Positions 36,201-58,537 of a stretch of DNA of 64,000 nucleotides are shown piece after piece; within the stretch, counting starts at the first letter, position 1, and each line of letters starts with the position of its first letter. This DNA comes from Promethearchaeota archaeon. Lineage in GTDB: Archaea > Asgardarchaeota > Lokiarchaeia > Sigyniarchaeales > SOKP01. The stretch spans positions 384,001-448,000 of the forward strand of contig JBHLNF010000002.1 in assembly GCA_048937405.1 (NCBI GenBank), written 5' to 3'. The position numbers and the translations under genes were made by a program. The notes beneath the pieces are model-generated. The model was given only the letters and a program-made list of their open reading frames with translations. It searched no databases and was not told the origin of the DNA.

Positions 36201-37630
36201 AGATCCACATCAGAAATAATAATCTTTTTCAATAGATATTTTAAATAAAATAAATATTTAGTCCTAAATCCTAAAAATGATTTTTTAGTTCTTATAGCAC
36301 CAATGAATAATTTTTTATTTACCATATCCTTTATTGTAGGGAAAATATCTTCTTTTAATTTTAAAGGTTCTAAATGCTCTGTTTTATGTTTTTTGAAAAG
36401 TTCAGAAAGGGATATTATACTATTGTTATTCAATTTATTATAAAAATTTTTAAAGAATTCTTTCTTGCCATAACTGAAATTACTGATATAATTCTTGAAT
36501 TCAATCTCATTATCTAAAATCTGTAATTTAAAATTATAATTGAGATTAATGTATAAAATAAGTTCATCTATATATTCTACTAATCCAAAAGTCGACTTTA
36601 ATTGATTTATATCAACATACTTTTCTTTTTCAAGTTGTCTGAATAAAACCCTTTCAATTTCATCACTAAATTTTTTCCAAACGATAGATAAAAGAATTAT
36701 TAATTTTGAAGTTTCATTTAATATTTCAGAATTCCAATTCTCTGGATTCTTTAATATTTCTTTTAATTTTTGAGTAATAAAGGAATAAATTCCTGCAGGA
36801 TTATAATCCAATAACCATGAATATAATTCAAGGATATAAACTAACCAGAAAGTGATATCAACGTTATCATCCTGATTAAAACTGAAACCACCATTTTCTT
36901 TCTGAAGCTGTTGAAGTAATTGAAGTTCTTTATCTTTAACCTCCATATCCAAATCTAAATATTTAAGGCAAAGTAATCTAAAAATTAACGAGGAATCTTT
37001 TTTCTTTTCTCCCGTATATGTACGGAACTGCTCTCTATTTAAACGGACATCCACTCCAAGGATTGTAAATATTTCCATCACATAAAATAACAATTTTGAC
37101 GTAGAAATATTTCTACAAATTTCACAATCTTTGGCTTGGCAATGTATAAACTTATTCCCCTTTTTCAGTGATAAAATAAAATTTCTAATTTGTTCTTTTA
37201 CTTGAGTTCTTCCTTCGGATAACATGTATTGATTTAATAAACCTGCAGTTTTTAAACAGGACAGCGCAAAGAATGTAGAACAAATATCAGGATCATTATT
37301 AGAATGGGGAGTAGAAATAAATCCTATTTTATTATCCAGCTGAACTTCACAATTTTTAATAAAAGAAAAAATTTCATCCCTATTTTTCCTTTTTTCTAGT
37401 TTTAAATATTTCCGAAGCAATAGTAACCAAAAGACATTTTCAAGATTTAGATGCGATGTATTTATAAATTTTTGATTAAAATGTTCATAGAATTCAATTA
37501 TTTTATTATATTCACTATAATAAAAAATTAGAATATCTCTTCGTTTAATATTTATAAAAGATTTAAATGGTTCTTTTTTAAATTTTGTTATGTAAGGATA
37601 TGCAAATTTCTCTTCGTACGCATTGCTCAA
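33218..37630 (-). CDS. Large protein: prenyltransferase-beta-like repeats + PCI-like winged helices + coiled coils + C-terminal TM hairpin
   Basis: PDICSTFFALSCL, LQKENGGFS, DITFWLVYIL; LKIKKQNIQDHLLFLISSGELEGKFD; heptad-rich middle; two terminal hydrophobic helices. Confidence 0.7.
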   Translation of the reverse strand: MSNAYEEKFAYPYITKFKKEPFKSFINIKRRDILIFYYSEYNKIIEFYEHFNQKFINTSHLNLENVFWLLLLRKYLKLEKRKNRDEIFSFIKNCEVQLDNKIGFISTPHSNNDPDICSTFFALSCLKTAGLLNQYMLSEGRTQVKEQIRNFILSLKKGNKFIHCQAKDCEICRNISTSKLLFYVMEIFTILGVDVRLNREQFRTYTGEKKKDSSLIFRLLCLKYLDLDMEVKDKELQLLQQLQKENGGFSFNQDDNVDITFWLVYILELYSWLLDYNPAGIYSFITQKLKEILKNPENWNSEILNETSKLIILLSIVWKKFSDEIERVLFRQLEKEKYVDINQLKSTFGLVEYIDELILYINLNYNFKLQILDNEIEFKNYISNFSYGKKEFFKNFYNKLNNNSIISLSELFKKHKTEHLEPLKLKEDIFPTIKDMVNKKLFIGAIRTKKSFLGFRTKYLFYLKYLLKKIIISDVDLNTERLYEEKEKLDDIKNDIYNMTLKLKNISSQIREEIESYLVINETNYAKERLKFILRDALMEADFLNENIEGSFNEILKYINIQASLGSEIAQWKKEYSVLQKKLSEVESYLKGKIQEKEELRNLSSLLETLNEKIDVLEEDLIKKLDLFKKQFNEILEKKYDEVELNLIIQSLDQLSQNVRKYDHIIYGVSQQITVKEKKIVKKHKKIIENWIKIKEQFNTEFDFYIKGFQFFNINLQKIEDVSKQIKAEILEIGEKAKNKIKANDFQDAYNFTKREYDLLMKEKIAEIKEIQSIVKREIRKKQKLYLLYRHLQEILEELEAEVIELIANQVKTLKKFIAEERNKSKIEDFDNFVSQEISNLKSQLKIIKNNFDHSDNLKIDQINKEFDHIQSQFTKSKKLYLKKINECTKNIENFKEQSELSIIQWENFIESFNDDLSILKDEYINKVISNSVNIIAIEKKTNYIKLDDLKNEVKLSCKVLISRLKDMIDLSKMNAELNEDEKSILVYTDYYYLNKDLKNYVDNHLLKLNRERIGKILALYDSSIRNRTLNVNMLELQNRINELNIFDDFLPNKFNEKARDLKILQERTEFIETKKYFESILENDRIAISDIKSSLNLFNKMHNYLEKQFNNLNNEIREFSNKVFRRMENYDNYIKIQDIYETEKHLINENFKKVQNKVEEQIKSVLNATEDLNKLIPEIRELYVRSKNSYSNEFDNKVHKITDKITSLKNESFREQLIIIINNKKIHLSQLLGNLERKVEDNIEIKEFKKCNYLIQKRAKNIELEIKEVKKHIENTIKDFSKKSKNFLQISKFVLDDFNKFIEEYFEILNEKVKALERLILKSYIKMTIKAVANEYLTVGFLNNELKIKKQNIQDHLLFLISSGELEGKFDPRIAIYFENPEVLDELDETELEVIKSTNYKLNMMLRHLKNLASQYGSVIALFASIITITYYFYLFSGNNPVVIALPITLTILILIFYVLKKNKEQTIN

Positions 37631-38622: not shown

Positions 38623-40050
38623 TTATTTTTTGTCTTTTGGTAAATGGCCTATCTCTTCTCTAATAGATGGGGTTAAAAAGTCTTTTTCCGTAGGCTTATT
38701 TAATATCTCTAAAAGATTATATTCTGTGATCATTTGAAGGATTCCCAGAACTTTCATACCATGCTCGTACATATCGTTCGCATCGGACAAATTCCTCCAA
38801 CAAAATGGACACTCAGTTGTTAAAATATCCGCTCCAACAGCATTCGCTTCATCACATCGTAAACTTGCTGTTTTAAGTGAAAATTCAGGATATCCTGCCC
38901 TTACTCCACCTCCAGCTCCGCAACACATACTATCAATTTTTATTCTGTACATCTCTTTGAATACTAAACCTACATCCTCCTCAAGTTTTCTAAGAATGAT
39001 ACGTGGAACTTCATACCATGCTTCGATTGCTTTATCAATCGCTCGATGTTCTATTATAAGCTTCGTTGATTCTTTTATCATTTCTTGCTCCATATCGATA
39101 GCAAAATGTCTGCCTGTATGACAAGGATCATGATAAGTAACAACTTTTCCTTTCAATTCTTTGTTTGGTTTGAATTTGATTTTCTCTTGTTGCACTAATC
39201 TTGCAACAAGTTCAAATGCGTGTTGTGTTTTAAATGGAAGCTTCTCATCCTCACCCATCCATTTTGGATAATCGATAGTAAAAGTTCTATAACAACCTGC
39301 ACAACTAAAATAGACCATTTTGACATTCTTGAAAGCTTCGAGATTTTTTCTCATTAATTCCTGAGCGGTATCAACTGCCCCAATTCTAAAGAATGGACTT
39401 CCACAACATACTTCATCATCAACTAAGGTAAAATTCATCCCTAATTGCTCAAATAATTTAGCAGTTGCAATTGCTACTTCTACTTGACGATAACTAGCTG
39501 TACATCCAACGTAATAGGCAATTTTTGCATCCTTATTATCAATAAACTTTTCTAGTCCTGCATCCTTCGCCCATTTCATTCTTTCACTAGCAGCTCCACC
39601 ATATGGATTATTTCTTTCTTTGACTAATTTATCCACTACCTCATGTTTATCGATCATCGGTATACCAGCTTCTATACATGCTGCCCTCAATGATTCAATG
39701 ATATCAACAGTAGGAACCTTATTTTCACATTGCGCTGAGCATTGACCACATGTTATACAGGGTAAAAATACATCTCGCACTTCTTCACTAAATTCTAAAT
39801 CACCACTTAAAATCGAGCGAGCAATCCACATTTTACCGGCATTCCAGAAAGCTTCCCATCCATATTCTATTCCCGCAGGACATGCATCTACCATTCCTTC
39901 ATAAAGAACCGTTCCTTGCTTTCCTGCAAATTCTCCTATTCCCTCCCTATCAGGTTCATTCGAATAAGCAAATCTACATGCTTTACAATGAATACATTTA
40001 TAAACCTCTTTTTTTAATTCTTCTAATCTTTCCATTCCTGTTTTTGCCAT
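38623..40050 (-). CDS. Fe-S oxidoreductase, GlcF/HdrD-like (two [4Fe-4S] motifs + two CCG domains)
   Basis: CIHCKAC, CITCGQCSAQC, YYVGC, CCGSP, YHDPCH, CCGAGGG, ECPFC. Confidence 0.9.
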   Translation of the reverse strand: MAKTGMERLEELKKEVYKCIHCKACRFAYSNEPDREGIGEFAGKQGTVLYEGMVDACPAGIEYGWEAFWNAGKMWIARSILSGDLEFSEEVRDVFLPCITCGQCSAQCENKVPTVDIIESLRAACIEAGIPMIDKHEVVDKLVKERNNPYGGAASERMKWAKDAGLEKFIDNKDAKIAYYVGCTASYRQVEVAIATAKLFEQLGMNFTLVDDEVCCGSPFFRIGAVDTAQELMRKNLEAFKNVKMVYFSCAGCYRTFTIDYPKWMGEDEKLPFKTQHAFELVARLVQQEKIKFKPNKELKGKVVTYHDPCHTGRHFAIDMEQEMIKESTKLIIEHRAIDKAIEAWYEVPRIILRKLEEDVGLVFKEMYRIKIDSMCCGAGGGVRAGYPEFSLKTASLRCDEANAVGADILTTECPFCWRNLSDANDMYEHGMKVLGILQMITEYNLLEILNKPTEKDFLTPSIREEIGHLPKDKK

Positions 40051-40071
40051 TTTTTTATCAACCTCCTTTCT

Positions 40072-41562
40072 TTATGGAAGAGCAAGTCTCCCTGGGTGCA
40101 TTATCATATTTGGATCAACAAGCTTTTTAAAAGCCCTTAGATATTTCCAATACATTCCTGCTTGATAATACGCTTGTATATGAATGTATGGGTCTGGTCT
40201 ATAATTTAACCAACCTTGTTTTAACGCGTATTCTGTAGTCTCTCTATTTAATTCTTGAACTCTTTCGAAATCTGACTGTTTAGTGGAGTCAAAACCAATT
40301 ATAGGCATACATATCGCTTGTCTGCAACGCTCAATACTAGCTACCCAAATTGTAGGGGGAAGACCATGTTTCTCCGCCGCTTTTATATACATATCGCAAA
40401 AGTGAGCGCATTCATTCCATGGTGTATACCATGTAATAAAGAGAAAACCAGCTTCCCATAAACTATATGAAATTGCTAGTTTATTTGGCTTTTTCATTCG
40501 ACTTGCTATTTGTTTAGGATGTAATTCTTGTTTTACAAGAGCATCAGGATCTTTTGCTCGCTTTTTAAAATCTTCTGCTTGTTTGTCGATAGTCTCAATT
40601 ACATGCTCCAATTCGCTTTTTTCTTGAGCCCAAATCTCCCAATTCATCCACCATGGTGCAACTCCAAGTTCCTTATAGAATTCATAATCATGTGGGACTT
40701 TATCTTTTGGCCAGCGAGTCATAACTAAAGGATAATTTCCTCCCTGAACCATTACAGTATGATGAGCAATTCCAAACTCTTTTTTACCAACTTCAAGAGT
40801 TAAGTCTTGCATATCATAAGGATTCGACATACACCAGACAACTACAGTTTTATGTTTTGGGTGGGGATAAATTTTCACAGCAGCTTTAGTAATAACACCC
40901 ATAGACCCTTGAGAACCCATTAAATAACTCCACATATCAGGACCTAAACCATATTTATAAAATGGTTTAGCAAAAGGAAGTGCCCAAGATCCAGTTCGTA
41001 CTACATCTCCATTAGGGAAAACAATTTCTCCACACATAAAATTATCTCCCTGTGGACCAACTGAAGACGTATATAAAGAGAATCCCCGATCAATTGCATC
41101 TCCCATAACTGTCGCTGCTGGAGGTGCACCATCAGGAATAGGGGGTGCCCAATCTGGGTGGTTTTTATTCATATAAGCCCAGAGTTCCCCATTAGTAACT
41201 CCCGGTTCTATAATACAATATCGATTTTCCTCATCGATTTCAATGATCCTTTTCATTCTTCCTAAATCAAGAACAACTCCACCAGGTCTTATTGTAGGGC
41301 ATGCAAATCCTCCAGATAACCCACCGGAGATAGGACTTACAGGGATCTTTTCAGCAGAACAATAAATCAATATTTTGCGTATCTCCTCGACATATTTCGG
41401 TCTAATAACGATATTAGGAATCTGTGACTCTAATCCCATAACTGATTTTGCCAAATAACCCGCAGTAATTGCCTTGTTGTTTGTAGCAAATTCTTTACCG
41501 ACAATACCAATCATAGCTTCTAAATCTTTTTCATCTGGTAATTTATAGCTCATATTTTCCAA
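40072..41562 (-). CDS. FAD-binding oxidoreductase (GlcD/VAO family)
   Basis: GGVVLDLGRM, EPGVT, GSQGSMGVITK, C-terminal DPNMIMHPG; operonic with the GlcF-like gene; true start probably MSYKLP. Confidence 0.9.
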   Translation of the reverse strand: MENMSYKLPDEKDLEAMIGIVGKEFATNNKAITAGYLAKSVMGLESQIPNIVIRPKYVEEIRKILIYCSAEKIPVSPISGGLSGGFACPTIRPGGVVLDLGRMKRIIEIDEENRYCIIEPGVTNGELWAYMNKNHPDWAPPIPDGAPPAATVMGDAIDRGFSLYTSSVGPQGDNFMCGEIVFPNGDVVRTGSWALPFAKPFYKYGLGPDMWSYLMGSQGSMGVITKAAVKIYPHPKHKTVVVWCMSNPYDMQDLTLEVGKKEFGIAHHTVMVQGGNYPLVMTRWPKDKVPHDYEFYKELGVAPWWMNWEIWAQEKSELEHVIETIDKQAEDFKKRAKDPDALVKQELHPKQIASRMKKPNKLAISYSLWEAGFLFITWYTPWNECAHFCDMYIKAAEKHGLPPTIWVASIERCRQAICMPIIGFDSTKQSDFERVQELNRETTEYALKQGWLNYRPDPYIHIQAYYQAGMYWKYLRAFKKLVDPNMIMHPGRLALP

Positions 41563-41854: not shown

Positions 41855-42424
41855 TTATATTTCTTGAATTTCCTGATCTAATCCTATTTGGTTATATTCA
41901 CTATTAATATTAGAAAATGTCGAGAATTTTCTATGTTTATTATCATTTATAATGAATTTATGAAAAGTTTTATTTTGATCATCAATAAATTCTCTAAATT
42001 CTTCATAAATTTCTTTTAATGTCATTTTTCTATTATTTAGGGGGCCTTCTTGCTTGATACTTTTGTTTTCACTATTTTTTTCCTTATTTATAGGGACAAA
42101 TTTCACAATATCTCTATCATAAATTATTTGCTCAAATAGATCACGATCTTTATTATCAAATTGACTAAATGCTTTGACACCATTGCTTAAATTTTTTGTA
42201 CTTTCTTGGTTCAATTCCAAATCAACCTTTTGATATCCTCGAATTTGAAATTGATTGTCCATAAAAAATTGAAAGTGATGAGGGCAAATTAGACCTTTTT
42301 GGATTGAAATTGTAGTTAATCGAGAGTTTTTATTTATTTGTGATCTTGGTATACCAACAAGATCTCTGGTTTTACAGATTGGACAAATGACTTGAATCTT
42401 ATTTGTCTTTGTAATAATATTCAT
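41855..42424 (-). CDS. Zinc-finger-like hypothetical protein
   Basis: CPIC...CPHHFQFFMDNQFQIRGYQKVD, a motif type I recognise as common in Lokiarchaeia. Confidence 0.65.
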   Translation of the reverse strand: MNIITKTNKIQVICPICKTRDLVGIPRSQINKNSRLTTISIQKGLICPHHFQFFMDNQFQIRGYQKVDLELNQESTKNLSNGVKAFSQFDNKDRDLFEQIIYDRDIVKFVPINKEKNSENKSIKQEGPLNNRKMTLKEIYEEFREFIDDQNKTFHKFIINDNKHRKFSTFSNINSEYNQIGLDQEIQEI

Positions 42425-42535: not shown

Positions 42536-43339
42536 TTATCTTCTTAAGAATATTTTCGATGAATACCTTATACCAATAAAGAGAAAGAATAGAGAAAAAA
42601 TTAGCGTTAAAGGCAATTGTCCTATTATAATGTAGGCGAAATTAGGTTCTGCTGAATAGAAATACAACGTAATGGTTACTCCTAAAAATATGAACGAATT
42701 TGTAAGGGCAATTTTCCAGTTTGGAGACAAAAATCCAAAAATTAAATTTGGAGGTAAAAACAGAATAACGATATTTGCTGTTGATAACAATATTAAAATT
42801 GGCATGAAAGTTGTGAATAATTGATCCGCGTTATAGAATCGGTTTAAATTAAAGTATTGAAAAATGAATAAAGTTGTATTTATACTCATAAAAATTAAAA
42901 AAAATGATAAAGGTCCAACGATTAACCATGATAATAGTGTCCTTATAATCGGTTTTTGCATTACTTTTCCTTTTAAATTATTATTAAATATTTCTTCCAT
43001 CTCCTCAGGAAAAATTAATTCTGGATTATAATCAGGAGAATATGAGTCAATAAAATCTTGCATCATATTTTTAAGAATTTTTGAAACTAATTCGTTATTT
43101 TCATTCACTCCTACAACAGCAGCCACGAGAAATCTTTCTTCTTCGTTAGGAACTAAAATTAGTTTATCATTCTCACCGAGATCAACATTTTTAACTACAC
43201 TTCCAAGAGCTTCTCTACTAAAATTAGCAATTGAGGAGAAGAATCCTATTAGAATATTTTCATCATATTTTTTTTCCATAAAATTTTTCGAATATAATAA
43301 AATTCCATTTTCATCTAAGAAATATACACTTTTTATCAT
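42536..43339 (-). CDS. Longin-like domain fused to four TM helices
   Basis: MIKSVYFLDENGILLYSK...LIGFFSSIANFSRE...LKNMMQDFIDSY, then 4 hydrophobic helices. Confidence 0.75.
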   Translation of the reverse strand: MIKSVYFLDENGILLYSKNFMEKKYDENILIGFFSSIANFSREALGSVVKNVDLGENDKLILVPNEEERFLVAAVVGVNENNELVSKILKNMMQDFIDSYSPDYNPELIFPEEMEEIFNNNLKGKVMQKPIIRTLLSWLIVGPLSFFLIFMSINTTLFIFQYFNLNRFYNADQLFTTFMPILILLSTANIVILFLPPNLIFGFLSPNWKIALTNSFIFLGVTITLYFYSAEPNFAYIIIGQLPLTLIFSLFFLFIGIRYSSKIFLRR

Positions 43340-43369: not shown

Positions 43370-45115
43370 TTATTTATAATCTTGTTCAAAAAATTCTTTA
43401 TAATCCTCTAAAGATGCTTTAGATCTTTTAAAACTGAAAAGATATTTACCGAATAATTCTATTAGGCGAATTATCATCTTGTTTGGGTTATCTTTTAGAA
43501 ATATTTTATACTTTTCATTTTTTCTCTCTTCTTGAATTTTGGCTACTTCATCAAACTTATATAGTTTCTCAATTAATCTCTCATCCGGATTATTTAATTC
43601 TATGGTAATAATTTCACCTGATTGAGGCAATTCTTCAATTAATTTTTTGAATGTCCCAATTTTTGATTCTTTTTTACCAATGGTTAATATTTGATCACAA
43701 TTAGAAACAATTCCCTCTGGAGCATGAAAAATTAGAATTACATTAAATTTCTCTTTTATTTTTTCCATAGAATTATTGAATTTATCATATTCTAATCGAT
43801 CTAATATTTCAAAGGGAATAAAGAACATAATTATTGAAGGAAATTTTACCAAAGCTTTAGCAATTGAAAATAAAAGGAAATCTAAATGATTTAATTCTGA
43901 ACAACGCTTATTTTTCTTAAGTGATAATCCTGTAAGCTCTAAGGCATTTTTAATATACGATTTACCATGAATTAATCTCCTTGAAGGAGCTACGAATATT
44001 TCTCCAATTATCTCATCAATCCTAGGAACAAATCCCGCAGTTTTTAATATCAGTTGGAGTTTGGATTTTCGATTTTTCAGAATTCCTTTAATGTCAATTT
44101 TATATTTAATTGCTTTCTTGACTTTCATATTTAATATTTTTGATTCATGCGCCTGAGGTAATATTACTATTTTTTCTAAATCTTTTCTATTTAAAAATTG
44201 AACCTCTTTTCCAAAAATTTCAATATTCCCAAAAAAATCAGAAAAATTCCCAGCAATACTCCAAAAAAGATAAAATAAATCATATTTATGTTCTGTATCA
44301 GATAATAGTTCTTCATCATAAAGAATCCCTATTGATTTTCCTCTGTGAATCCTGAAAGAAACATTTTGTATTCCATTCTCTATAGAGACATTTTTCAATA
44401 TTAAGTGTTGAGAATTTGGTCCTAATCTATCTAATTTTAACCGTTTTTCGATTATATTACAAATTACCTCAATTATTTGATAAATGTGGGGGGGATTTAG
44501 TTCATTCCAATTTTTAATTATATCTTCTTTGATAAAATCTCTTTCACTTATAATCTTTGAAAGTGTTCTTGAAAAGGAAAATAATGGTATAAGAGGGTAT
44601 TTTTCAAAATTTATATGTAATTTAATCACAAAATAAGGAAAAGAAATTCTAAATTCTCTATTATAAGGATTACTATCAACCATATAATTTTCAAATCTCT
44701 CATCTAATAACTCAACTTCTCTATCAAGTAGCATTATATGATTTTGAAATTCCTTTCGAATGAGGTTCCTCATACGTTCGATGATTTTTTTAGGACTAAC
44801 TAGTCCATCCTCATCGAAATCAGGATCAACAATAATTTCATTAAAATCAAATTCATCTATAAGGGGTGTATAAATTTTTAATAAAGGTACTCCCTTGTCC
44901 TTTACATCCTGATTAGTAAAGAATAATACTTCGATAAAAGATTTTTTATAGATTAAATTTAAAATTGAAGCAATACCAAAAGTGTTTTCTCTATATGTCA
45001 TCCAAAAACGTCTAGAAAATCTGACAGCATCCAAAATTTTCAGTCTAAGACGCTCTAATTCAAGGTTTCTAGAGGGCTTAAAAAATTTAGATTTCTTCAA
45101 ATCCTTAGATTTCAT
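43370..45115 (-). CDS. RWD/UEV-like domain(s) fused to a catalytically degenerate ABC ATPase
   Basis: LDREVELL...IKLHINFEKYPLIPLFSF...IKNWNELNPPHIYQII; ABC fold cues (NVSFRIHRGKSIGI, GNIEIFGKEV, LPQ, IAKALV, CDQILTI) but Walker A, signature and Walker B are lost. Confidence 0.7.
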   Translation of the reverse strand: MKSKDLKKSKFFKPSRNLELERLRLKILDAVRFSRRFWMTYRENTFGIASILNLIYKKSFIEVLFFTNQDVKDKGVPLLKIYTPLIDEFDFNEIIVDPDFDEDGLVSPKKIIERMRNLIRKEFQNHIMLLDREVELLDERFENYMVDSNPYNREFRISFPYFVIKLHINFEKYPLIPLFSFSRTLSKIISERDFIKEDIIKNWNELNPPHIYQIIEVICNIIEKRLKLDRLGPNSQHLILKNVSIENGIQNVSFRIHRGKSIGILYDEELLSDTEHKYDLFYLFWSIAGNFSDFFGNIEIFGKEVQFLNRKDLEKIVILPQAHESKILNMKVKKAIKYKIDIKGILKNRKSKLQLILKTAGFVPRIDEIIGEIFVAPSRRLIHGKSYIKNALELTGLSLKKNKRCSELNHLDFLLFSIAKALVKFPSIIMFFIPFEILDRLEYDKFNNSMEKIKEKFNVILIFHAPEGIVSNCDQILTIGKKESKIGTFKKLIEELPQSGEIITIELNNPDERLIEKLYKFDEVAKIQEERKNEKYKIFLKDNPNKMIIRLIELFGKYLFSFKRSKASLEDYKEFFEQDYK

Positions 45116-48100
45116 TAACTTTTGGCACCTCCATTGCTTTATAACGAAAATATTGTTCCATTTTTGAATCTATTTGTTTTACTTCTTTAATTGATTCTTT
45201 TCCCATCTCTTCTTCTATTTTTTCAACCAACATATCGATATTTAAATTAGTGAAAATTGAATAATTTGTACCTACTTTATTTTCTAAGACTTTATCAATC
45301 CCTTCAATCCCTTCGAGTTTATTAATTACATTTTCTTTTATATTTGTAAATTCAACTTCAATCGATCTTCCCTTTCCAGGTAAATTAACTAAAAGTGATT
45401 TAGGCTGTCCAAAATCTATCATTCCACGCTTTCGACCAAAGATAGCAACTAGATTACAAAATCTAGACTCTTCAGGATAGTGGGTAATAACAACTAATGT
45501 TGTATTGAATTGCTCATTAATCTTAGTTAATACAAGCCATAAGTTTTCTCGTACAACAGGATCCAAACCGCTAGTTGGTTCATCTAAAATTAAAAACATC
45601 GGTGAATGCATTAGTCCTATTGCAATACTAACTCTTCTTTTTTGCCCACCAGAGAGATTTTTAACGTACTCATCTATTTTATCCTCAATTTCTAGGCTGC
45701 GTAAAATTCGCTTCGCTCGACTCATAATCTCTTTTTCTGTAAGACCATACTGGCTTCCAAAATATAATAAATTTTCAAACGTGGTAAAATTATGATAAAT
45801 TTTACCTAAATCTTGAGGAACATACCCATATATTGGTCTAATTCTTCTTGAAATTCTTCTATTCATATTCATTCCATAAATTTGACAAAATCCAGTAATT
45901 TTTCTCATACCTAATAAACCTTTAATAAAGGTTGATTTCCCTGCACCGCTCTCTCCTAAAATTCCTAAAATTTTTCCATGCTTTACATTCATAGAAACGG
46001 AATCAACTATTAATTTTCCTCCTGCAAAAATACTTAAATTTTCACAATTAATTGCGGGAAATTTTTTTAAATAGGATTCATTAAGTTTCCCTCCAAAACC
46101 AAATAATAATTTAATTCTTTGTGGTATAGAAAGCCGTTGATAGAGTTTAAACAATATAAAAAATCCAATACCCGCAGCTTCAATAAGCAGAATATATGTT
46201 AATAAAAGGTTCCAAGGTTTTGAATCAAAACTTTGATCATATTGCAATTCATCTACAATAACAATTGCATTAGCCATATTTCTTAAATCACCTCCAAATC
46301 CTGGATTATCACCCACTCCTCCTGTATTAAAACTAATACATTGAATATACCAATTTAAAGTAGTTTTTATATTTTCTGGCTGAAATCTGTAGTCATAAAG
46401 CCCTTTTGATCCAAAATAAGTAATCATAAAGTTGGATGGTAAGTCAAGATAAGCCCCAAAAGCGGGTAAAACTAAAAACGAGCCATCTGAAGTTTGTGAG
46501 TTCTTTAGAAACTCGATGGCGGCTATTTTAGCCATTGGCTCAGAATTTAATAAATCAGTGAAAATTTCCAATCCATAATAAGTTGAAATAACATCACTAT
46601 GGAAGCCTATAAATAAAGAAAATCCACCATCTGGATTTTGACATGATCTCATCCAATGAGTAAGATTAACATGATTGATATTATCTAAATCATTGATTAC
46701 TTCCAACGAATATAAAGCCCAATACGTGCTTTCCATAGTTGACATATTTGAATTAATTAAATATATCAGTATTTGATAAACTGCTCCATACATGTTTAAA
46801 ACTGCTTCTACATCCTGACCCACACTAAATCCACCATCTGGATTTTGAAGATCGACTAAATAATTTGTAATATTCCCAATCTCATCATCTTCAGGCCATT
46901 TATTTGTAAAAGGAAAAAGGATTTTATAAATATTTAATCCACAATAGGTAGCATATAAAGTGGCATTTTCACCAGGAGAGGATGAAAATCCACCATTATA
47001 AGGATTATAACATCTATCAACAAAATTTGTTATGTTTTTCAATATTTCTTCATTCATAATCTCTTTATTTATAAATTCAGTAAATATTTCAGGATTATAA
47101 TTATAAAGGGCTGAGATCCCGTTAAAATTTGCTTCAATTGTAGTGCTTCCAAATAATGAATTTTGTCCTTGAAAAAAATGAAGCCATTCATAATAATTAA
47201 GAGTTGCTTCTCTAATATCAGCAAGGTTACTTTCAGTTAAGGACTCTAATTTGAGACTATCAATTGACTTCATAGCAGCCCACCCTGATATAAAATCGGA
47301 ATTATCATTCGAAATTGGATTTGAACGAAAACCTCCATCTCCATTTGAACAATTAAGTATAAAAGAAAGAGTCTTTTGTTCATCAAATAGCAAAGGATTA
47401 TATAAACCTAATCTCCTTAATGATGATAAAGCATAATATGTCGATTGGACATCAGAAGGTCCACCTAAAATATTAGAAAAACCATAATCTATAACATTAT
47501 ATAGCGAATTAAAATAGGTATAAATAGCCGACAATTCTGCAGAAGAATAGGTCATATTCATTCCTAAAAATGCTTGAATGCCATAATAGGTTGATTCGGC
47601 TGTTGCTACACTTAAAGCATCATTTGTCAATTTATAACTTCCTACTAGCCATGTGGAATTAATATATTTTGAAATATTATCATTTCTAAGGATGAAATCA
47701 CCATTTAAAATATTAGCTAAATCAATAGCACATGAAGTAGATCTTAAATCAGTAATATTTAAAAAGGGAATTAACTTAAATCCCCCTTCTTTTTTGTTCA
47801 GTGAATTATTTAGATAATTTAAAATATTGTCTGTCTGATTTTGCTGAATTTTATTTAGCAAATATGATTGATTTGCAATCTCTAAAGTCTTTATTGCTTG
47901 ATATGTAGAAATCATATTTCCCAATCCACCTATATCTGAATATGAACCATCTATATTTTGTTTTTCAAAAATATAATCAAAGAATATATTTGGTTTATAA
48001 TCTTTTACATGTTTATTCGAAATATCATTTGGATTTACAAGATCTGAAGAATATAATTCAACAAACGTAAAATTTATTGAATCAACTGCTCTAAAATTTG

Positions 48101-48308
48101 AATCTAAAGTTGGTTCTATGAACAATCCATCATCATTTTGATGTGTCCATGTGAAAAAAACAGCATTGTCTTTAATGAATTGAACATCTTCATTTTTAAT
48201 ATATTCAATATAAGGAATATTAACTAGAATAATAGATATAATTGGAACACCTACTAGAATTCCCAAAACCAAGATATTTTTTAGCAATCGTTTTGTTTTG
48301 TGACCCAA
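45105..48308 (-). CDS. Prenyltransferase/squalene-cyclase QW-repeat barrel + TM + ABC ATPase fusion
   Basis: N-terminal TM; repeats KQNIDGSY, CSNGDGGF, LQNPDGGF, CQNPDGGF, SQTSDGSF with STY(Y/W)(A/G) helices; TM near residue 705; GESGAGKST, LSGGQKRR, LILDEPTSGLD, ITHY. Confidence 0.88.
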   Translation of the reverse strand: MGHKTKRLLKNILVLGILVGVPIISIILVNIPYIEYIKNEDVQFIKDNAVFFTWTHQNDDGLFIEPTLDSNFRAVDSINFTFVELYSSDLVNPNDISNKHVKDYKPNIFFDYIFEKQNIDGSYSDIGGLGNMISTYQAIKTLEIANQSYLLNKIQQNQTDNILNYLNNSLNKKEGGFKLIPFLNITDLRSTSCAIDLANILNGDFILRNDNISKYINSTWLVGSYKLTNDALSVATAESTYYGIQAFLGMNMTYSSAELSAIYTYFNSLYNVIDYGFSNILGGPSDVQSTYYALSSLRRLGLYNPLLFDEQKTLSFILNCSNGDGGFRSNPISNDNSDFISGWAAMKSIDSLKLESLTESNLADIREATLNYYEWLHFFQGQNSLFGSTTIEANFNGISALYNYNPEIFTEFINKEIMNEEILKNITNFVDRCYNPYNGGFSSSPGENATLYATYCGLNIYKILFPFTNKWPEDDEIGNITNYLVDLQNPDGGFSVGQDVEAVLNMYGAVYQILIYLINSNMSTMESTYWALYSLEVINDLDNINHVNLTHWMRSCQNPDGGFSLFIGFHSDVISTYYGLEIFTDLLNSEPMAKIAAIEFLKNSQTSDGSFLVLPAFGAYLDLPSNFMITYFGSKGLYDYRFQPENIKTTLNWYIQCISFNTGGVGDNPGFGGDLRNMANAIVIVDELQYDQSFDSKPWNLLLTYILLIEAAGIGFFILFKLYQRLSIPQRIKLLFGFGGKLNESYLKKFPAINCENLSIFAGGKLIVDSVSMNVKHGKILGILGESGAGKSTFIKGLLGMRKITGFCQIYGMNMNRRISRRIRPIYGYVPQDLGKIYHNFTTFENLLYFGSQYGLTEKEIMSRAKRILRSLEIEDKIDEYVKNLSGGQKRRVSIAIGLMHSPMFLILDEPTSGLDPVVRENLWLVLTKINEQFNTTLVVITHYPEESRFCNLVAIFGRKRGMIDFGQPKSLLVNLPGKGRSIEVEFTNIKENVINKLEGIEGIDKVLENKVGTNYSIFTNLNIDMLVEKIEEEMGKESIKEVKQIDSKMEQYFRYKAMEVPKVNEI

Positions 48309-48313
48309 ATCAA

Positions 48314-49315
48314 TTATTTTCTAATCACCTTTAAATCATTCGAACTAATTATTTTTTCTTCCTCTTGTAAAATTCTAATTTGAAAGTATCTTCTAAAAGT
48401 AGCGAGATCTTTACTCATTGAAGTTATGATAATATTATTATCTAACATATACTCGATTAATTTTGATAAATTTTCCTCATAATTTTCCATTAGAACCTCA
48501 ATTGCTTCATTTCCTACTCTTATTATTCTTCTTATAGACGGAAATTTCTCAATAAATGCAATTATTTTTTCATTTAGATTTTGAATTGTAAACCTTGCTA
48601 TTAATCCTTCACTTGGTAAGGAAGATATTAGGTTTTGAGAGGTATCAAACTCTAATAACCTTCCATCTCTTAAAATTGCTGCTTTATCACATATTAATGC
48701 AGCTTCTAAATCATGAGTAATTATAAACATCGTCGTATTTAATCTTTGGTTTAGTTTCTTTAAATAGCTAAGTATATCATAGCGTTTCGAGGCATCCACG
48801 CCAGTAGTAGGCTCGTCTAAGAACAAAACATCTGGATTATGAATTAAACCGATAGCCATTGACAATCGTTTCTTTTCTCCACCGCTCATTTTTTCAACTT
48901 TCTTTTTCCAAGTATCTTCTGGAATATCAAGGATTTTAAACAATTTTTTTGCTATTTCTTTTGCATTTTTTTTATTCATTCCATATGTAGAGGTAAAGAC
49001 CTCAACGTTTACCATTGGATCTAATTCGAAATATAAATTTAACATTTCAAGTTGTGGAACATATCCAATATTGCTGAGAATCTTTGAATGATTACTCTTT
49101 TTATCAGGAGATAAACCAGTAACTTTAACTTCTCCAGACCAATTTTTTTTTTCAATTTGACAGGTCATTACTCTGACTATGGTTGTCTTTCCTGCTCCTG
49201 AAATTCCAAATAAGCCTATAATTTCTCCTTTATCAACAGTAAAGCTAACGTCATGAACAACATGTTTTTCTCCAAATTTAACATTTAAATTTTTTACATC
49301 TACCATCCTTTTCAT
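48314..49315 (-). CDS. ABC transporter ATP-binding protein
   Basis: GISGAGKTT, YVPQ, MSGGEKKR, LFLDEPTTGVD, ITHD. Confidence 0.95.
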   Translation of the reverse strand: MKRMVDVKNLNVKFGEKHVVHDVSFTVDKGEIIGLFGISGAGKTTIVRVMTCQIEKKNWSGEVKVTGLSPDKKSNHSKILSNIGYVPQLEMLNLYFELDPMVNVEVFTSTYGMNKKNAKEIAKKLFKILDIPEDTWKKKVEKMSGGEKKRLSMAIGLIHNPDVLFLDEPTTGVDASKRYDILSYLKKLNQRLNTTMFIITHDLEAALICDKAAILRDGRLLEFDTSQNLISSLPSEGLIARFTIQNLNEKIIAFIEKFPSIRRIIRVGNEAIEVLMENYEENLSKLIEYMLDNNIIITSMSKDLATFRRYFQIRILQEEEKIISSNDLKVIRK

Positions 49316-49336: not shown

Positions 49337-50626
49337 TTACACCTCATATTTTCTCCTTTTAAATATTATAAATGATACCATTGTCAAGATAGAACTAATA
49401 GCTAATAACCAAAAGAAGTGTAATCCCAGAATTGATTGACCTTTTTGAATTATACCGCGAAGTAAGGGATCTCCATGAGATAGAGGCAAAATATATGCAA
49501 TAACTTGCAAATAGGGAGGCATACCTTCAATAGGAATAAAAATTCCACTTAAAAGAACGGCAACAAGAAAAACAGCAAGAAATAACTGATTTGCTTGAGT
49601 CTTTGTTTTGCTCATTGAGCTAATAAAAACTCCCATCGTCAATCCAGAAAAACCAATTATGAATAGAGCAAGAAATAAATCTATTAGAGTACCCGCTATA
49701 TATAATCCCATTGATAAACCACTGATTAGCAATAAAGTAACTTGAAATAATAATACTAGAGTATATGTAATATATTTAGATATTAAAATTTCTGATCTCT
49801 TTACTGGAGTGAGTAATAATCGCGCAATCGGTTTCTCTTGAACAATTACTAATATTGATAATACAAAAGCGATACCAAAAACCATAAATGAAAGGGCCAT
49901 TACAATACTAGAATTGAAATTATGACTATATCCTTCAGGAATAATAAATTCTTCAAATCCATGAAGTTCAAATTGGGGTGTAAGATTATTCTCATTTACA
50001 AATATCTTAATTGAATCATAAACGGCGTTAAGACTCTGTTGAATAAACTGAATTTCTGAGGCATCTGGAACACAATCAATCAATCCTGGTAAACCAAATT
50101 TAAGTAATTCAGTAAAATCGACAGGCAAAGATAGAATAATTGAGATCTCCCCAGATATTAGAGCGTTTCTGGCTGTTTCCATTGCATATATCTCTTCAGT
50201 TGCGTTATAAAATTGAACTAAATCAAGCATAACCGACTTATTTACAGCCTCTACATATGGTATGGTATAATTATCTAAATATGATTCTGTTAAATCATTT
50301 TGGTTAATAACTATATTAGAATCGTATGATATTAACATACAAGGAATTGATTGCGTTTCGGGAGGTGTATCTGTCATTGTAAACCCTAACATAACTATTA
50401 TTAAAGGAGGTAACACGATAGCAAGCAGGAGATTAAATTTATCAGTCCATAAAAGTCTAAATTCTTTTTTAACCTGTTTTAAGATTCTTAGAGCGTTATT
50501 TTTTGATTTTAAAATTTTTTCAATAAATTTATTAAAATCAGGTTTTAGATTGGATACTTTACTTTTTACCTTCTCAAAATTTGGCTTGATTTTAGAATAC
50601 TTCTCTTTAATCTTTTTTTTATCCAA
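49337..50626 (-). CDS. ABC-2 family permease with large extracellular loop
   Basis: KEFRLLWTDK, TM1, ectodomain, RLLLTPVKRSEILISK, LSGIFIPIEGMP, LPLSH. Confidence 0.92.
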   Translation of the reverse strand: MDKKKIKEKYSKIKPNFEKVKSKVSNLKPDFNKFIEKILKSKNNALRILKQVKKEFRLLWTDKFNLLLAIVLPPLIIVMLGFTMTDTPPETQSIPCMLISYDSNIVINQNDLTESYLDNYTIPYVEAVNKSVMLDLVQFYNATEEIYAMETARNALISGEISIILSLPVDFTELLKFGLPGLIDCVPDASEIQFIQQSLNAVYDSIKIFVNENNLTPQFELHGFEEFIIPEGYSHNFNSSIVMALSFMVFGIAFVLSILVIVQEKPIARLLLTPVKRSEILISKYITYTLVLLFQVTLLLISGLSMGLYIAGTLIDLFLALFIIGFSGLTMGVFISSMSKTKTQANQLFLAVFLVAVLLSGIFIPIEGMPPYLQVIAYILPLSHGDPLLRGIIQKGQSILGLHFFWLLAISSILTMVSFIIFKRRKYEV

Positions 50627-50657: not shown

Positions 50658-51812
50658 TTACACCTCTAATTTCTTAAACATGTAGATGAAATATGCTAAT
50701 GATGCATAAATTAAAGAGCTTAAATTAAGCCAAAATATACTAATTAAATTAGGAGGTAATCCTTTTAATGTTATTTCAGTTATCAATGGAACTGCATTTG
50801 ATAATGGAAGCATATTCATAAAAATTTGTATACCTCCTTCCGTATCACCTAAAGGAAGTATACTTCCCGAAAAAAGTATTATAATAATAAACATAATTAG
50901 ATACATTTGATTAGCACTTTGTTCTGTAGGGCTTAATGCAGAAATAAATAACCCAATACAGATTCCACTAAAACCGATCATTATAAGTACTAAAAAGAAA
51001 TAAAATAATGAACCCAAACTATACAATCCAAAAAATGCAGTTAAAATAAAAATCTCTGTGGATTGAAGTAGCATAATTGCAGAATTAGCAATTAATTTAC
51101 TTAAAATGATTTCTCTTTTAGCAGTTGGAGTTATAAGCATTCGAGGAAGTGGACCCTCGGAGACTATTGAAAGAGAAGTTAAGTTCATAGTTGTTCCAAG
51201 AATTATAATGGGTAGAATTAAAGGGATTGCATAATTTAAAATTGCTGATTCCCAAAAAGGGACATCAAATTCTAAATAAGGCACCATAATAGTAAAATTT
51301 GCCATCATATCTGTCTGTGCTCTAAATAATGCTATAGGTTCTTGAATTGCAACTTCAACTGCTGTTATTGCCGCGAGATCAGAAGCATCAATATGATATA
51401 TCAGAATTGGATTGGATTTATTCTCAACTAACTCTGAAAAATTACTTGGTAAAACAATAATTATATCTATATCTCCACTTCTTAAGAGTTCATAACAAGT
51501 CTGGTATGCATTTTCGTATTCATCTAAATTAGTAGCATTATAATAACCATGAAATCCCCATGATGAGGTACTATTTTGCATTATTGATATGAAAGTTTCA
51601 TCATATTTTGAAGAATTCGTAGGAAAGTCATCATATGTAGGCATATCATCGAGTGTGATAATAGCAGATGTAAAAAATTTTGTAAGACCCCCCCCAGTAG
51701 TTAAACCAAAAACTAAGATTAGTAATACAGGAATTATAAATATTAAAATTAATGTTCTTTTATCTGCTCTAATTCTACCAAATTCCTTTCGTATTAATCC
51801 GCCTAGATACAT
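50658..51812 (-). CDS. ABC-2 family permease with large extracellular loop
   Basis: KEFGRIRADK, RMLITPTAKREIILSK, FSGSILP, LPLSN. Confidence 0.92.
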   Translation of the reverse strand: MYLGGLIRKEFGRIRADKRTLILIFIIPVLLILVFGLTTGGGLTKFFTSAIITLDDMPTYDDFPTNSSKYDETFISIMQNSTSSWGFHGYYNATNLDEYENAYQTCYELLRSGDIDIIIVLPSNFSELVENKSNPILIYHIDASDLAAITAVEVAIQEPIALFRAQTDMMANFTIMVPYLEFDVPFWESAILNYAIPLILPIIILGTTMNLTSLSIVSEGPLPRMLITPTAKREIILSKLIANSAIMLLQSTEIFILTAFFGLYSLGSLFYFFLVLIMIGFSGICIGLFISALSPTEQSANQMYLIMFIIIILFSGSILPLGDTEGGIQIFMNMLPLSNAVPLITEITLKGLPPNLISIFWLNLSSLIYASLAYFIYMFKKLEV

Positions 51813-54223: not shown

Positions 54224-54823
54224 TCATATCAGTATATTATTTCTAAAATATCTTTTGCTGATGTTATAATATAAATAGAATACTAAGAGGTAATGAATTA
54301 GTATACAAAAGATTATTCCAAAACTTAGAAACATATAGCCAAGGTATAATCCCATTAAGAAAGGATATATCAAGTTTACTAATAAAAGTGTTCTATTTTT
54401 ATATGAAAACCATGCATGGAAATGATATAATGAAAAGATTAGGCTTGAAATAAAAATAACAGACAGATCATCTAAATTTAATGAATTTATCAAGATTCCA
54501 ATTAGATAATACCTAAAAATTAATTCTTCCATAATCATTGTTAATGGTAAAAATATCAATATGATTTTTCTATTATTTCCTTCAATTAAAGCATTTGTAA
54601 CATCATGTTTCCGCATCAATTCGATATTATCCTTATTGAAAATAAAAATTTCAATAAATTTTCCTATGGTTAGAAGAATAAGTAAACCAAAGAGTAAAAA
54701 TAAAATTATAAAAAGATTAAATTCTCTGATTACAAGATATCTAACATTAAAGCCAAAAAATATTGGAATAAACAATAATATAGATACAAGAGTAATAATT
54801 GTGTATTTATTAGAGTTTTCCAA
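54224..54823 (-). CDS. CPBP (Rce1/Abi-like) intramembrane protease
   Basis: MEELIFRY, FSLYH, LIH motifs. Confidence 0.85.
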   Translation of the reverse strand: MENSNKYTIITLVSILLFIPIFFGFNVRYLVIREFNLFIILFLLFGLLILLTIGKFIEIFIFNKDNIELMRKHDVTNALIEGNNRKIILIFLPLTMIMEELIFRYYLIGILINSLNLDDLSVIFISSLIFSLYHFHAWFSYKNRTLLLVNLIYPFLMGLYLGYMFLSFGIIFCILIHYLLVFYLYYNISKRYFRNNILI

Positions 54824-55463: not shown

Positions 55464-56366
55464 ATGACAACAAAAATCACTTTTATTGGTATGCCTGAAG
55501 TAGGAAAGACAACCATTAAGAAAGTAATTTTCGATGGAGAAGATCCAAATAAATTAATTTTATTTCCTCTTGAAGCCTCTTTAAGGATTGATTATTCTGT
55601 ACATGAGTTTATGGGTTCTAAAATTGTTTTAATAGATACTCCAGGGCAAACTTTATCAGATTTATTAGAAAATGATGAAAAGCAAAAAAGAGCCTTCGAA
55701 AATGCTAATGCGATAATCTATATTTTCGATTATCCTACTTACATAAAAAATTCTGAAGCGATAATCAATGATATCAGGAATCTTTATAATGTCAATAGAA
55801 AACATGAATTTGGGGCTAAAATTATATTGTTTTTACATAAAGTCGATCTTATCCTAGCTAAAAAAATTGGTTTTAAACTTGCTATTGTCCAAAAACAAAT
55901 TAATAAATTACTAAGTTTGCCTGAGGATTTGCCTATTCATTTTACAAGCTTACATCCTAACTTAATATATACAGTTTATAATGCGTTATCAGATACAATC
56001 GGGATATTTTCAGATGAAATTTCAAGTTTAAAGAATATACTTAAAAACTTCATGAAGGAGTTATCTAAGACAATTATTTTAGTATCTAATAAAGAAGATA
56101 ACCTAATAATTCAAATATTATCTGATGATTTTGATACATCTCTTCTCTTTTCTATTTATGAAAATATTTATAGATCACGCAAATCACCAGATGATATCTT
56201 AGCTAAGAGCAGTTTAATTATGTTAGATTCCAATATATTGCATGTTGTGAAGTCAAATATCTCAACTTTGAATATAAATTTTAAAAACATGATAATAATA
56301 TCTGAAACACTAAAAATTAATGAGTTAGAAAACCTAATTGGAGAAATCAAAGAGAGAATAAATTGA
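55464..56366 (+). CDS. Rag/Gtr-like GTPase with C-terminal roadblock-like domain (copy 1)
   Basis: GMPEVGKTT, DTPGQ, Rag-type G4 HKVD, G5 TSL. Confidence 0.85.
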   Translation: MTTKITFIGMPEVGKTTIKKVIFDGEDPNKLILFPLEASLRIDYSVHEFMGSKIVLIDTPGQTLSDLLENDEKQKRAFENANAIIYIFDYPTYIKNSEAIINDIRNLYNVNRKHEFGAKIILFLHKVDLILAKKIGFKLAIVQKQINKLLSLPEDLPIHFTSLHPNLIYTVYNALSDTIGIFSDEISSLKNILKNFMKELSKTIILVSNKEDNLIIQILSDDFDTSLLFSIYENIYRSRKSPDDILAKSSLIMLDSNILHVVKSNISTLNINFKNMIIISETLKINELENLIGEIKERIN

Positions 56367-56382
56367 TTCTAAGACCATAAAT

Positions 56383-57420: not shown

Positions 57421-57501
57421 GTATATATTCATTTTCATAAATTTCTTTTATTATATATCCTATTGGAATTGAAAAAGATTCTCTAAATGGAAATCTATCG
57501 T

Positions 57502-57519
57502 TTTACTCAAGTTTAAATA
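57502..57519 (+). promoter_or_regulatory. Conserved promoter element of GTPase operon copy 2
   Basis: TTTACTCAAGTTTAAATA, identical to 55371..55388, at a similar distance from the ATG. Confidence 0.7.
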
Positions 57520-57598
57520 CATCAATTATTATTTGAATATAAAAAAATACTTATTTTTCCTAGTAAAAAATATAGTTATAGAAGTAAGATGCTGAATT

Positions 57599-58516: not shown

Positions 58517-58537
58517 TATATTATTGAGAAAAAAGAG

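Follow-up and report, generated by a model that had tools for sequence, protein, structure and literature searches.

Locus and gene organization

The DNA described here is a stretch of 64,000 nucleotides (the window) from a Promethearchaeota archaeon of the class Lokiarchaeia (assembly GCA_048937405.1, contig JBHLNF010000002.1, positions 384,001 to 448,000 of the forward strand), and all coordinates are given in window numbering. The protein encoded at 45105-48308 on the minus strand, labeled P1, joins prenyltransferase-like toroids to an ATP-binding cassette (ABC) ATPase. This fusion is real and old, but accessory, and it belongs to a conserved cassette of six genes that may encode an exporter. 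The cassette genes are tightly packed, abutting or overlapping, and all lie on the minus strand in the window. The first two encode ABC-2 permeases of 384 residues (50658-51812) and 429 residues (49337-50626), each with an extracellular domain between its first and second transmembrane (TM) helices. The third (48314-49315) encodes an intact stand-alone nucleotide-binding domain (NBD) of 333 residues, the presumed partner ATPase. P1 is the fourth. The fifth gene (43370-45115) encodes a 581-residue protein with a putative tandem RWD-like region and a degenerate NBD, and the sixth (42536-43339) a 267-residue protein with a soluble N-terminal domain of about 125 residues and four TM helices. Related loci were taken from species-representative genomes (63 loci, all from Asgard metagenome-assembled genomes). 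The order permease, permease, NBD, P1, pseudo-NBD protein, 4-TM protein is kept in every one of them with enough flanking sequence. No kinase, GTPase or other output gene occurs consistently within the cassette at these 63 loci.

Domain organization and membrane topology of P1

The P1 gene is a single open reading frame with a TTG start codon, encodes 1067 amino acids and contains no internal stops. Its start lies 5 bases past the upstream stop codon, and its end shares 11 nt with the next gene. Pfam models matched PF00432 (Prenyltrans) in four stretches (126 bits) and PF00005 (ABC_tran) at residues 769-913 (95 bits). A hydropathy scan revealed exactly two TM segments, at residues 11-31 (TM1) and 701-722 (TM2). 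Residues 1-31 (48216-48308) comprise a basic N-terminus, predicted to be cytoplasmic, and TM1, which has a mean hydropathy of 2.4 and an Asn30 kept in 59/61 homologues. The following ectodomain consists of toroid 1 (residues about 45-378; 47175-48176) and toroid 2 (residues 379-700; 46209-47174), with six hairpin repeats of the prenyltransferase-beta type in the first and six repeats in the second. TM2 (46143-46208) carries a membrane-embedded Glu710 (59/61 homologues) and is followed by a basic linker (residues 723-750; 46059-46142), so that about 30 residues separate TM2 from the NBD. The NBD itself (residues 751-975; 45384-46058) is of the DrrA/ABCA type with all catalytic motifs intact. 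Residues 976-1067 with the stop codon (45105-45383) form a C-terminal domain in common with the partner NBD and the pseudo-NBD protein.

Net charge in P1 amounts to +4 ahead of TM1, about -2 and -3 in the flanks that face outward, and about +5 behind TM2. The corresponding means are +4.2, -1.8, -1.9 and +4.9 in the 21 homologues of the alignment (A1) whose record includes TM1. These charges are textbook positive-inside and are kept in homologues, which fits a protein with its N-terminus inside, repeats outside and NBD inside. Moreover, the NBD must be cytoplasmic and a conserved TM helix lies between it and the repeats, which places the repeats outside. As judged from sequence, the topology of P1 is thus an internal N-terminus, two external toroids, and TM2 leading through the basic linker to an internal NBD. 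TM1 is read as a signal anchor or, possibly, as a cleaved signal.

An earlier, sequence-only reading of this DNA had described the same layout (TM, repeats sufficient for about two barrels, TM, intact NBD), with the barrels outside and the NBD inside, and it agrees with the open reading frame, the Pfam matches, the two TM segments and the flank charges found here. It had also pointed to more than a dozen N-x-S/T sequons; the count is correct (14 in the ectodomain), but it has no bearing on location, since shuffled sequences of the same composition contain 10.3 ± 2.7 and the sequons are thus not enriched. The cytoplasmic part of P1 is relatively richer in them, with 6 against 2.1 ± 1.3 expected from composition. 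A stop codon or frameshift separating the domains, which that reading had named as its possible undoing, was found neither in P1 nor in the full-length matches of other genomes. An assembly artefact that joined the domains is likewise ruled out, as the single open frame recurs in those genomes.

Fold and conserved residues of the ectodomain

The AlphaFold2 model of residues 32-700, built from a 39-sequence alignment, is all-helical and consists of two six-hairpin toroids (mean predicted local distance difference test, pLDDT, 91.8; predicted template-modelling score 0.91), which are predicted to be rigidly packed against each other. The two halves are weakly similar (24% identity over 308 columns, in register), as expected of an old tandem duplication. 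Among the 50 matches listed from an exhaustive structure search of about 48,000 chains, the top ones are the beta subunits of GGTase-I, FTase and GGTase-III (Z 25-27, root-mean-square deviation 2.7-3.4 Å over 274-292 residues). Squalene-hopene cyclase follows with Z 18.5 and a deviation of 7.6 Å, and six-hairpin glycosidases and the thioester domains of complement reach Z 15-17 (thioester domains alone, Z 15-16). Foldseek also ranks RabGGTase/GGTase-III, FTase and GGTase-I beta subunits top (E about 1e-9), while a fold search of the ESM Atlas returned generic prenyltransferase clusters only. The two toroids are not arranged as in the cyclases, on which the whole model superposes poorly (TM-score 0.20-0.42, deviation 12-22 Å).

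The residues on which the toroid enzymes depend are missing. Both halves of four family members were aligned by MAFFT with five RabGGTase-beta-like proteins, with all six repeats in register (alignment A3). The zinc triad of the prenyltransferases, Asp-x-Cys in repeat 5 and His in repeat 6, is replaced by D/Q/S in toroid 1 and by D/P/N in toroid 2. The Arg, Lys and Tyr of the G-R-x-x-K-x-x-D-x-C-Y motif, whose roles in prenyl diphosphate binding were derived from rat FTase, are replaced by I/G/S and L/A/S, respectively. The sole D-x-C of the ectodomain (residues 431-433) lies within the repeat motif, away from the zinc position, and no DxDD (D-x-D-[DE]), DDxxD or C-x-EQ thioester motif occurs anywhere in residues 32-700. 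The absence of the zinc DxC and cyclase DxDD motifs, as stated in the sequence-only reading, was thus borne out, and identities as a catalytic prenyltransferase, cyclase or thioester protein were rejected. Within the cassette, the part of the genome that was searched for it, no prenyltransferase alpha-subunit gene is present. By alignment and model, the ectodomain is a prenyltransferase beta-subunit fold without the chemistry of the toroid enzyme families examined.

Besides the structural Q-x-x-DGGF repeat, the end of toroid 2 carries an invariant motif, GG-x-GD-x-P-x-FGGDLRN (residues 663-677). Asp667, Asp674 and Asn677 are kept in 38-39 of the 39 sequences, with Asn677 invariant in all 39 family members. 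Gln557, Asp560, Asp572 and Gln605 are also invariant or nearly so, down to 28% overall identity.

The ATPase domain and the partner proteins

The NBD of P1 contains the motifs GESGAGKS (Walker A), VPQ (Q-loop), LSGGQ (signature), FLILDE (Walker B with the catalytic Glu), SGLD (D-loop) and ITH (H-loop), all of them invariant across 33 homologues. By its sequence it therefore has what defines a catalytically competent ABC ATPase (PF00005), as had been proposed. Its top NCBIfam match is TIGR01188 (drrA) with 153.8 bits; the equivalog cut-off of 312 is not reached, so the match denotes likeness to the subfamily and not orthology. Among proteins of solved structure, the NBD is closest to the lipid transporters ABCA3, ABCA4 and ABCA1 (E 6e-51 to 2e-44). 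On sequence criteria, the domain is of the DrrA/NodI/ABCA type, that is, of the ABC-2 type V exporter class, and its gene is linked to ABC-2 permeases. The nearest toroid-free relatives (38-44% identity) are Asgard proteins of about 560 residues with cytoplasmic N-terminal domains, some of them TrmB-like. The clade of this NBD habitually bears an N-terminal accessory domain, and that of P1 was placed extracellularly.

The permeases are of the ABC2_membrane_3 type (PF12698/PF01061) with TM1-TM2 extracellular domains of about 150 residues each, and the membrane domain of one matches an ABCG23-like transporter. The stand-alone NBD is 32% identical to that of P1 over 291 residues; both are intact. 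The C-terminal half of the 581-residue protein is paralogous to the NBD of P1 with the adjoining C-terminal domain (30% identity over 145 residues) and has lost Walker A, signature and Walker B in every homologue aligned. Its N-terminal 240 residues were modelled with a pLDDT of 80 as two helix-sheet-helix units. Foldseek matched them to the central (double-RWD) domain of FANCL, to CENP-O/P and Knl1, and then to ubiquitin E2 enzymes; the matches are marginal (E 3.5e-4 at best), and this N-terminus is described, from its model, as tandem (double) RWD-like. Membrane-embedded carboxylates comparable to Glu710 of P1 are found in both permeases (Asp316 of the 429-residue permease, 47/49 sequences; Glu253 of the 384-residue permease, 44/48). 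No conserved basic TM partner for Glu710 was found in the permeases or the 4-TM protein.

Distribution of the fusion

Of 1.84 billion cluster representatives searched exhaustively by HMMER with the ectodomain, only 23 matched at E < 1e-30. All full-length representatives that were scanned with Pfam (1042-1153 residues, down to about 28% identity) contain both PF00432 and PF00005; weaker matches are local repeat matches to other toroid proteins. The ectodomain is present in 87 of 399 Asgard species genomes, as tallied from three first-look candidates scored per genome, among which a true orthologue is expected to rank first. The window's own family accounts for 75 of these 87 when the window's genome is included (74 of 133 genomes without it). 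A handful occur in sister families and almost none elsewhere. The fusion family is nearly confined to Lokiarchaeia. Within the window's own genus, 20 of 53 genomes carry the ectodomain, and it is missing from several that are rated 97-100% complete. The full-length matches in other genomes are each one open frame without internal stops, most of about 1020-1100 residues; shorter frames are mostly partial matches.

The nearest relatives outside the family are large uncharacterized multi-toroid proteins of uncultured microbes that carry PKD, CARDB, Ig-like or collagen-like repeats. The only one named to an organism in the look-up belongs to a Woesearchaeota archaeon. Also, three metagenomic proteins (P0175, P0193 and P0230) join prenyltransferase-like toroids through a 7TM_transglut module to a cytoplasmic sugar-transfer-associated ATP-grasp domain. 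They represent a second case of a toroid outside and an ATP-dependent enzyme inside, in an unrelated and uncharacterized family.

Proposed function

P1 is read here as the second ATPase subunit of a hetero-oligomeric type V exporter (ABC-2, DrrA/ABCA-like), with toroids that would bind or hand on a hydrophobic cargo; a probability of about 0.5 is assigned to this reading. It is based on the two permeases and the two different, intact NBDs, a combination already known among type V exporters. The exporter would consist of the permeases at 50658-51812 and 49337-50626, the stand-alone NBD at 48314-49315, and the C-terminus of P1. The TM hairpin of P1, with Glu710, would pack onto the permeases, and the toroids would be placed beside or above the permease extracellular domains. 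There they would act as a non-catalytic module for binding or hand-off of a hydrophobic, probably lipid-like cargo that the permeases extrude. Since only about 30 residues join TM2 to the NBD, ATP-driven closure of the NBDs could also shift the position of the toroids. For the double-RWD pseudo-NBD protein, the probable role is that of a regulator or adaptor in the cytoplasm, docked on the NBDs.

A non-catalytic binding role is the most economical reading of the toroids, given the lost catalytic motifs, and here the sequence-only reading is followed. Its isoprenoid ligand fared less well, as this is suggested by the fold only and the diphosphate-holding Arg, Lys and Tyr are replaced in both toroids. 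The placement of the toroids was modelled by prediction of a complex of the ectodomain with both permease extracellular domains. The median ipSAE was 0.48 (runs 0.66, 0.27 and 0.48) and the best control reached 0.17; contacts coincide between runs to at least 52%, and the partner pLDDT is at least 85.

Several points weigh against the exporter reading. When the complex tool was calibrated, the mark was reached by 58 of 80 solved complexes and by 2 of 110 mismatched pairs, and the passes at 0.60 or under comprise 7 of the 80 solved complexes and both passing mismatches. A score such as that of P1 gives weak support, since by this calibration most predictions at that level are false, unless there was good reason to expect them beforehand. 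The ligand, cargo and contacts proposed for P1 are all predictions from sequence and models. There are three NBD-like proteins for two permeases, and P1 could pair with itself or with the pseudo-NBD protein instead of the stand-alone NBD. The lost diphosphate-binding residues weaken the case for prenyl diphosphates as ligands. The likeness of the NBD to ABCA proteins is one of subfamily and says nothing on substrate. Finally, the cluster of Asp667, Asp674 and Asn677 lies at the position of the prenyltransferase His ligand and could be an unrecognized active, metal or ligand site; with an acidic/amide motif so strongly conserved, the term non-catalytic is unproven.

A bolder and rather doubtful version of the exporter would make the cassette an archaeal machine for outward lipid transfer. 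The permeases would extract an isoprenoid-based membrane lipid or a lipid-linked molecule. The aromatic-lined toroids, moved by the fused NBD, would then receive it and deliver it to the surface of the cell, to protrusions or to a partner cell, and the double-RWD pseudo-NBD protein would link the machine to eukaryote-like cytoplasmic regulation. If true, Lokiarchaeia would have repurposed a prenyltransferase fold to build an analogue of lipid export of the ABCA1 or Lpt type.

The alternative that survives best, although it is unlikely, is that the toroids are the working or sensing end of a mechanotransmitter or receptor-ATPase and that no substrate need cross P1. Either internal ATP hydrolysis would drive a conformational job outside, as in FtsEX, MacB and LolCDE, or an outside ligand would gate the ATPase and the signal would pass inward through the double-RWD pseudo-NBD protein and the 4-TM protein. 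The build of P1 suits such a role, with a large ectodomain held between two TM helices and an NBD some 30 residues from TM2. So does the dead NBD paralogue, which bears an adaptor-type double-RWD domain, is always co-inherited and is encoded by the gene that overlaps that of P1 by 11 nt. The cytoplasmic, partly TrmB-like domains of unfused NBD relatives indicate that attachment of accessory or sensor domains is habitual in the clade, and the ATP-grasp proteins described above couple similar toroids to a cytoplasmic enzyme through seven TM helices. Against this, P1 is always accompanied by two full ABC-2 permeases and another intact NBD, which makes transport the default; P1 has only two TM helices and nothing of the FtsX/MacB fold; and the cassette holds no consistent output gene. 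The receptor-ATPase of the sequence-only reading is therefore not supported as it was written, since the P1 gene shares a strictly conserved ABC-2 exporter cassette with two permease genes and another gene for an intact NBD. The simplest reading of P1 is as a transporter subunit which, like TagH, has an accessory domain outside the cell.

It is improbable that the ectodomain is an extracellular enzyme of unrecognized chemistry, acting on an exported product or on a surface lipid or glycan with the Asp/Asn cluster of toroid 2 as its active site. The near-invariance of the 663-677 motif and of Gln557, Asp560, Asp572 and Gln605 would be expected of such an enzyme, and many enzymes use the alpha/alpha toroid fold. 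However, the catalytic sets of all toroid enzyme families examined (zinc triad, DxDD, thioester) are absent, much of the conservation sits in the structural repeat, and glycosidase folds match far worse (Z 15-17) than prenyltransferase beta subunits (Z 25-27).

Little weight is likewise given to the toroids as a surface scaffold or adhesion module that is anchored, and perhaps positioned, by the ABC complex without handling cargo. The surface-type repeats (PKD, CARDB, Ig-like, collagen-like) of multi-toroid relatives outside the family and the accessory, patchy occurrence of the cassette (20/53 genomes of the genus) are in its favor, whereas a covalent tie to an NBD with fully conserved catalytic motifs and permeases that are strictly co-inherited point to functional coupling, and the model has no stalk or repeats that would project the toroids off the membrane.

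Capture of a corrinoid or other vitamin for an uptake system, the other ligand that had been considered, is very improbable: transcobalamin and intrinsic factor do have an alpha6/alpha6 barrel, a general likeness to which nothing found here adds, but Pfam gave only toroid and P-loop ATPase families and no transcobalamin-type model on P1, no transcobalamin is among the 50 structural matches listed (a missing match being no exclusion of the family), the ectodomain model has no beta-rich domain of the kind that in transcobalamin is paired with the barrel to sandwich the corrinoid, the permeases and NBDs are of the exporter-type ABC-2/DrrA class and not ECF or BtuCD importers, and no cobalamin gene occurs among the cassette and neighboring genes scanned.

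Comparison with known systems

As a rule, an ABC ATPase is either a free subunit in the cytoplasm or part of one polypeptide with full membrane domains. In this respect the layout of P1 is unusual, but it is not unprecedented. The closest precedent for the exporter proposed here is TagGH, the wall teichoic acid exporter of B. subtilis, a type V (ABC-2) system in which the NBD is joined through a TM helix to an extracellular domain (PMC11466899). TagH consists of an NBD, one TM helix and a C-terminal ectodomain, whereas P1 runs TM, ectodomain, TM, NBD, so that its ectodomain is a loop held by two helices, and it is a double prenyltransferase-like toroid. The P1 cassette further differs from TagGH in its two different permeases, two different NBDs, pseudo-NBD protein and 4-TM protein. 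The cassette also resembles heteromeric ABC-2 exporters like PmtABCD, which have a pair of genes each for NBDs and permeases, and the hybrid exporters of type V/VI, NatAB and YhaQP, whose extracellular domains lie between TM1 and TM2. The likeness is in the two-plus-two gene content, in DrrA-type NBDs with a C-terminal domain and in ABC2_membrane_3-type permeases with a TM1-TM2 ectodomain (PMC11466899). In PmtABCD, NatAB and YhaQP, the ATPase is without an ectodomain and there is no RWD-bearing pseudo-NBD. ABCA1, ABCA3 and ABCA4 have the type V fold, large extracellular domains over their membrane domains and the solved NBDs closest to that of P1; however, they are single polypeptides, and their ectodomains are loops of the membrane domains with another fold.

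Each half of the ectodomain resembles the beta subunits of FTase, GGTase-I and RabGGTase/GGTase-III in its six-hairpin toroid, in 15-20% identity, in the repeat motif and in the aromatic-rich inner helices. The differences are the replaced zinc and diphosphate residues, the lack of an alpha-subunit gene in the cassette, and a domain that is extracellular, tandem-duplicated and membrane-anchored. LptB2FGC, in which LptC is a TM-anchored external domain that receives cargo, and MacB and FtsEX, whose external domains are moved by cytoplasmic ATP hydrolysis, may serve as working analogies for P1. They have other folds, belong to other ABC classes, and their accessory domain is not fused to the ATPase.

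A two-helix hairpin that tethers an ATPase to a 670-residue external double toroid is rare, and TagH is the sole described parallel found. In the literature searched, which included Asgard/Lokiarchaeota and RWD topics, no description of a prenyltransferase-toroid/ABC fusion or of the cassette was found, and database records of the fusion carry automatic names only. By these searches the architecture is not already characterized, TagGH being the type V precedent for an NBD tethered to an ectodomain (PMC11466899). P1 offers a natural system in which the state of an NBD would be mechanically linked to an extracellular domain, and coupling of ATP state to toroid position through the short basic linker is plausible from the sequence. 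It also presents a prenyltransferase fold apparently reused outside the cell without its chemistry, and may shed light on the numerous extracellular "prenyltransferase repeat" proteins that lack annotation in uncultured archaea and bacteria. The RWD fold is otherwise typical of eukaryotic adaptor complexes. A family found almost only in Lokiarchaeia, with a double-RWD-like partner, thus bears on the mixing of prokaryotic transport with eukaryote-like modules in Asgard archaea.

Neighboring genes and an insert in the partner NBD gene

A gene for a 189-residue protein with a weak zinc-ribbon match (41855-42424, minus strand) lies next to the cassette, and its counterpart stands beside the cassette in most loci with enough flank, upstream in some and downstream in others. 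Further along, at 38623-41562 on the minus strand, an FAD-binding oxidase (PF01565) and a CCG/4Fe-4S protein form a pair like a GlcD/GlcF-type dehydrogenase. The pair recurs downstream of the cassette in many loci at variable distance, which is probably ordinary synteny. Several genes whose names point to protein prenylation or to its clients are located less than 12 kb from the cassette. One, of the Rce1-like CAAX protease family (PF02517, E 7e-13), lies at 54224-54823 on the minus strand, and about 14 of the 63 related loci have such a protease gene upstream. The others are a gene for a 1470-residue protein (33218-37630, minus strand) and small-GTPase genes (55464-59575, plus strand). Since CPBP proteases are widespread in prokaryotes, this proximity may mean nothing.

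Orthologues of the partner NBD gene (window 48314-49315) in 12 other genomes, among those that supplied the related loci, contain an insert of 31-34 nt (for example L013:4906-4936, L029:372-402 and L039:8286-8317, with nine further loci). The insert is found in some genomes and not in others; the copy in the window has none, while locus L029, from a close relative with 90% protein identity over the P1 ectodomain, carries one. The site is identical in all cases, a codon boundary within the D-loop between EPTT and GVD (LFLDEPTT / GVDASKRY), and the inserts bring stop codons or shift the frame. Translational bypass was set aside because there are no matching take-off and landing codons, as was separate translation of the two gene halves, for which there is no consistent start codon. 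The one recent paper on Asgard tRNA introns that was consulted makes no mention of such cases. The insert folds into a canonical bulge-helix-bulge, in which exon 1 forms a 3-bp helix with exon 2 and a 4-bp helix with the 3' end of the insert. Two bulges of 3 nt each lie on opposite strands, and an intron hairpin completes the fold. In the alignment of 11 sequences, 92% of the cells pair. Compensatory double changes occur in three pairs of the two outer helices; in one of these pairs, the two bases are synonymous third positions, one in the Glu codon and the other in the Gly codon next to the insert. Covariation scores 0.351 as against 0.172 in shuffles (none of 500 as high), a signal that is lost once the pairing partners are shifted against each other. 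In every case the reading frame is regained by a cut behind the second or third nucleotide of the bulge. Judged from these sequence features, the insert is probably an intron of the kind removed by splicing endonuclease, here within a protein-coding gene of Lokiarchaeia.

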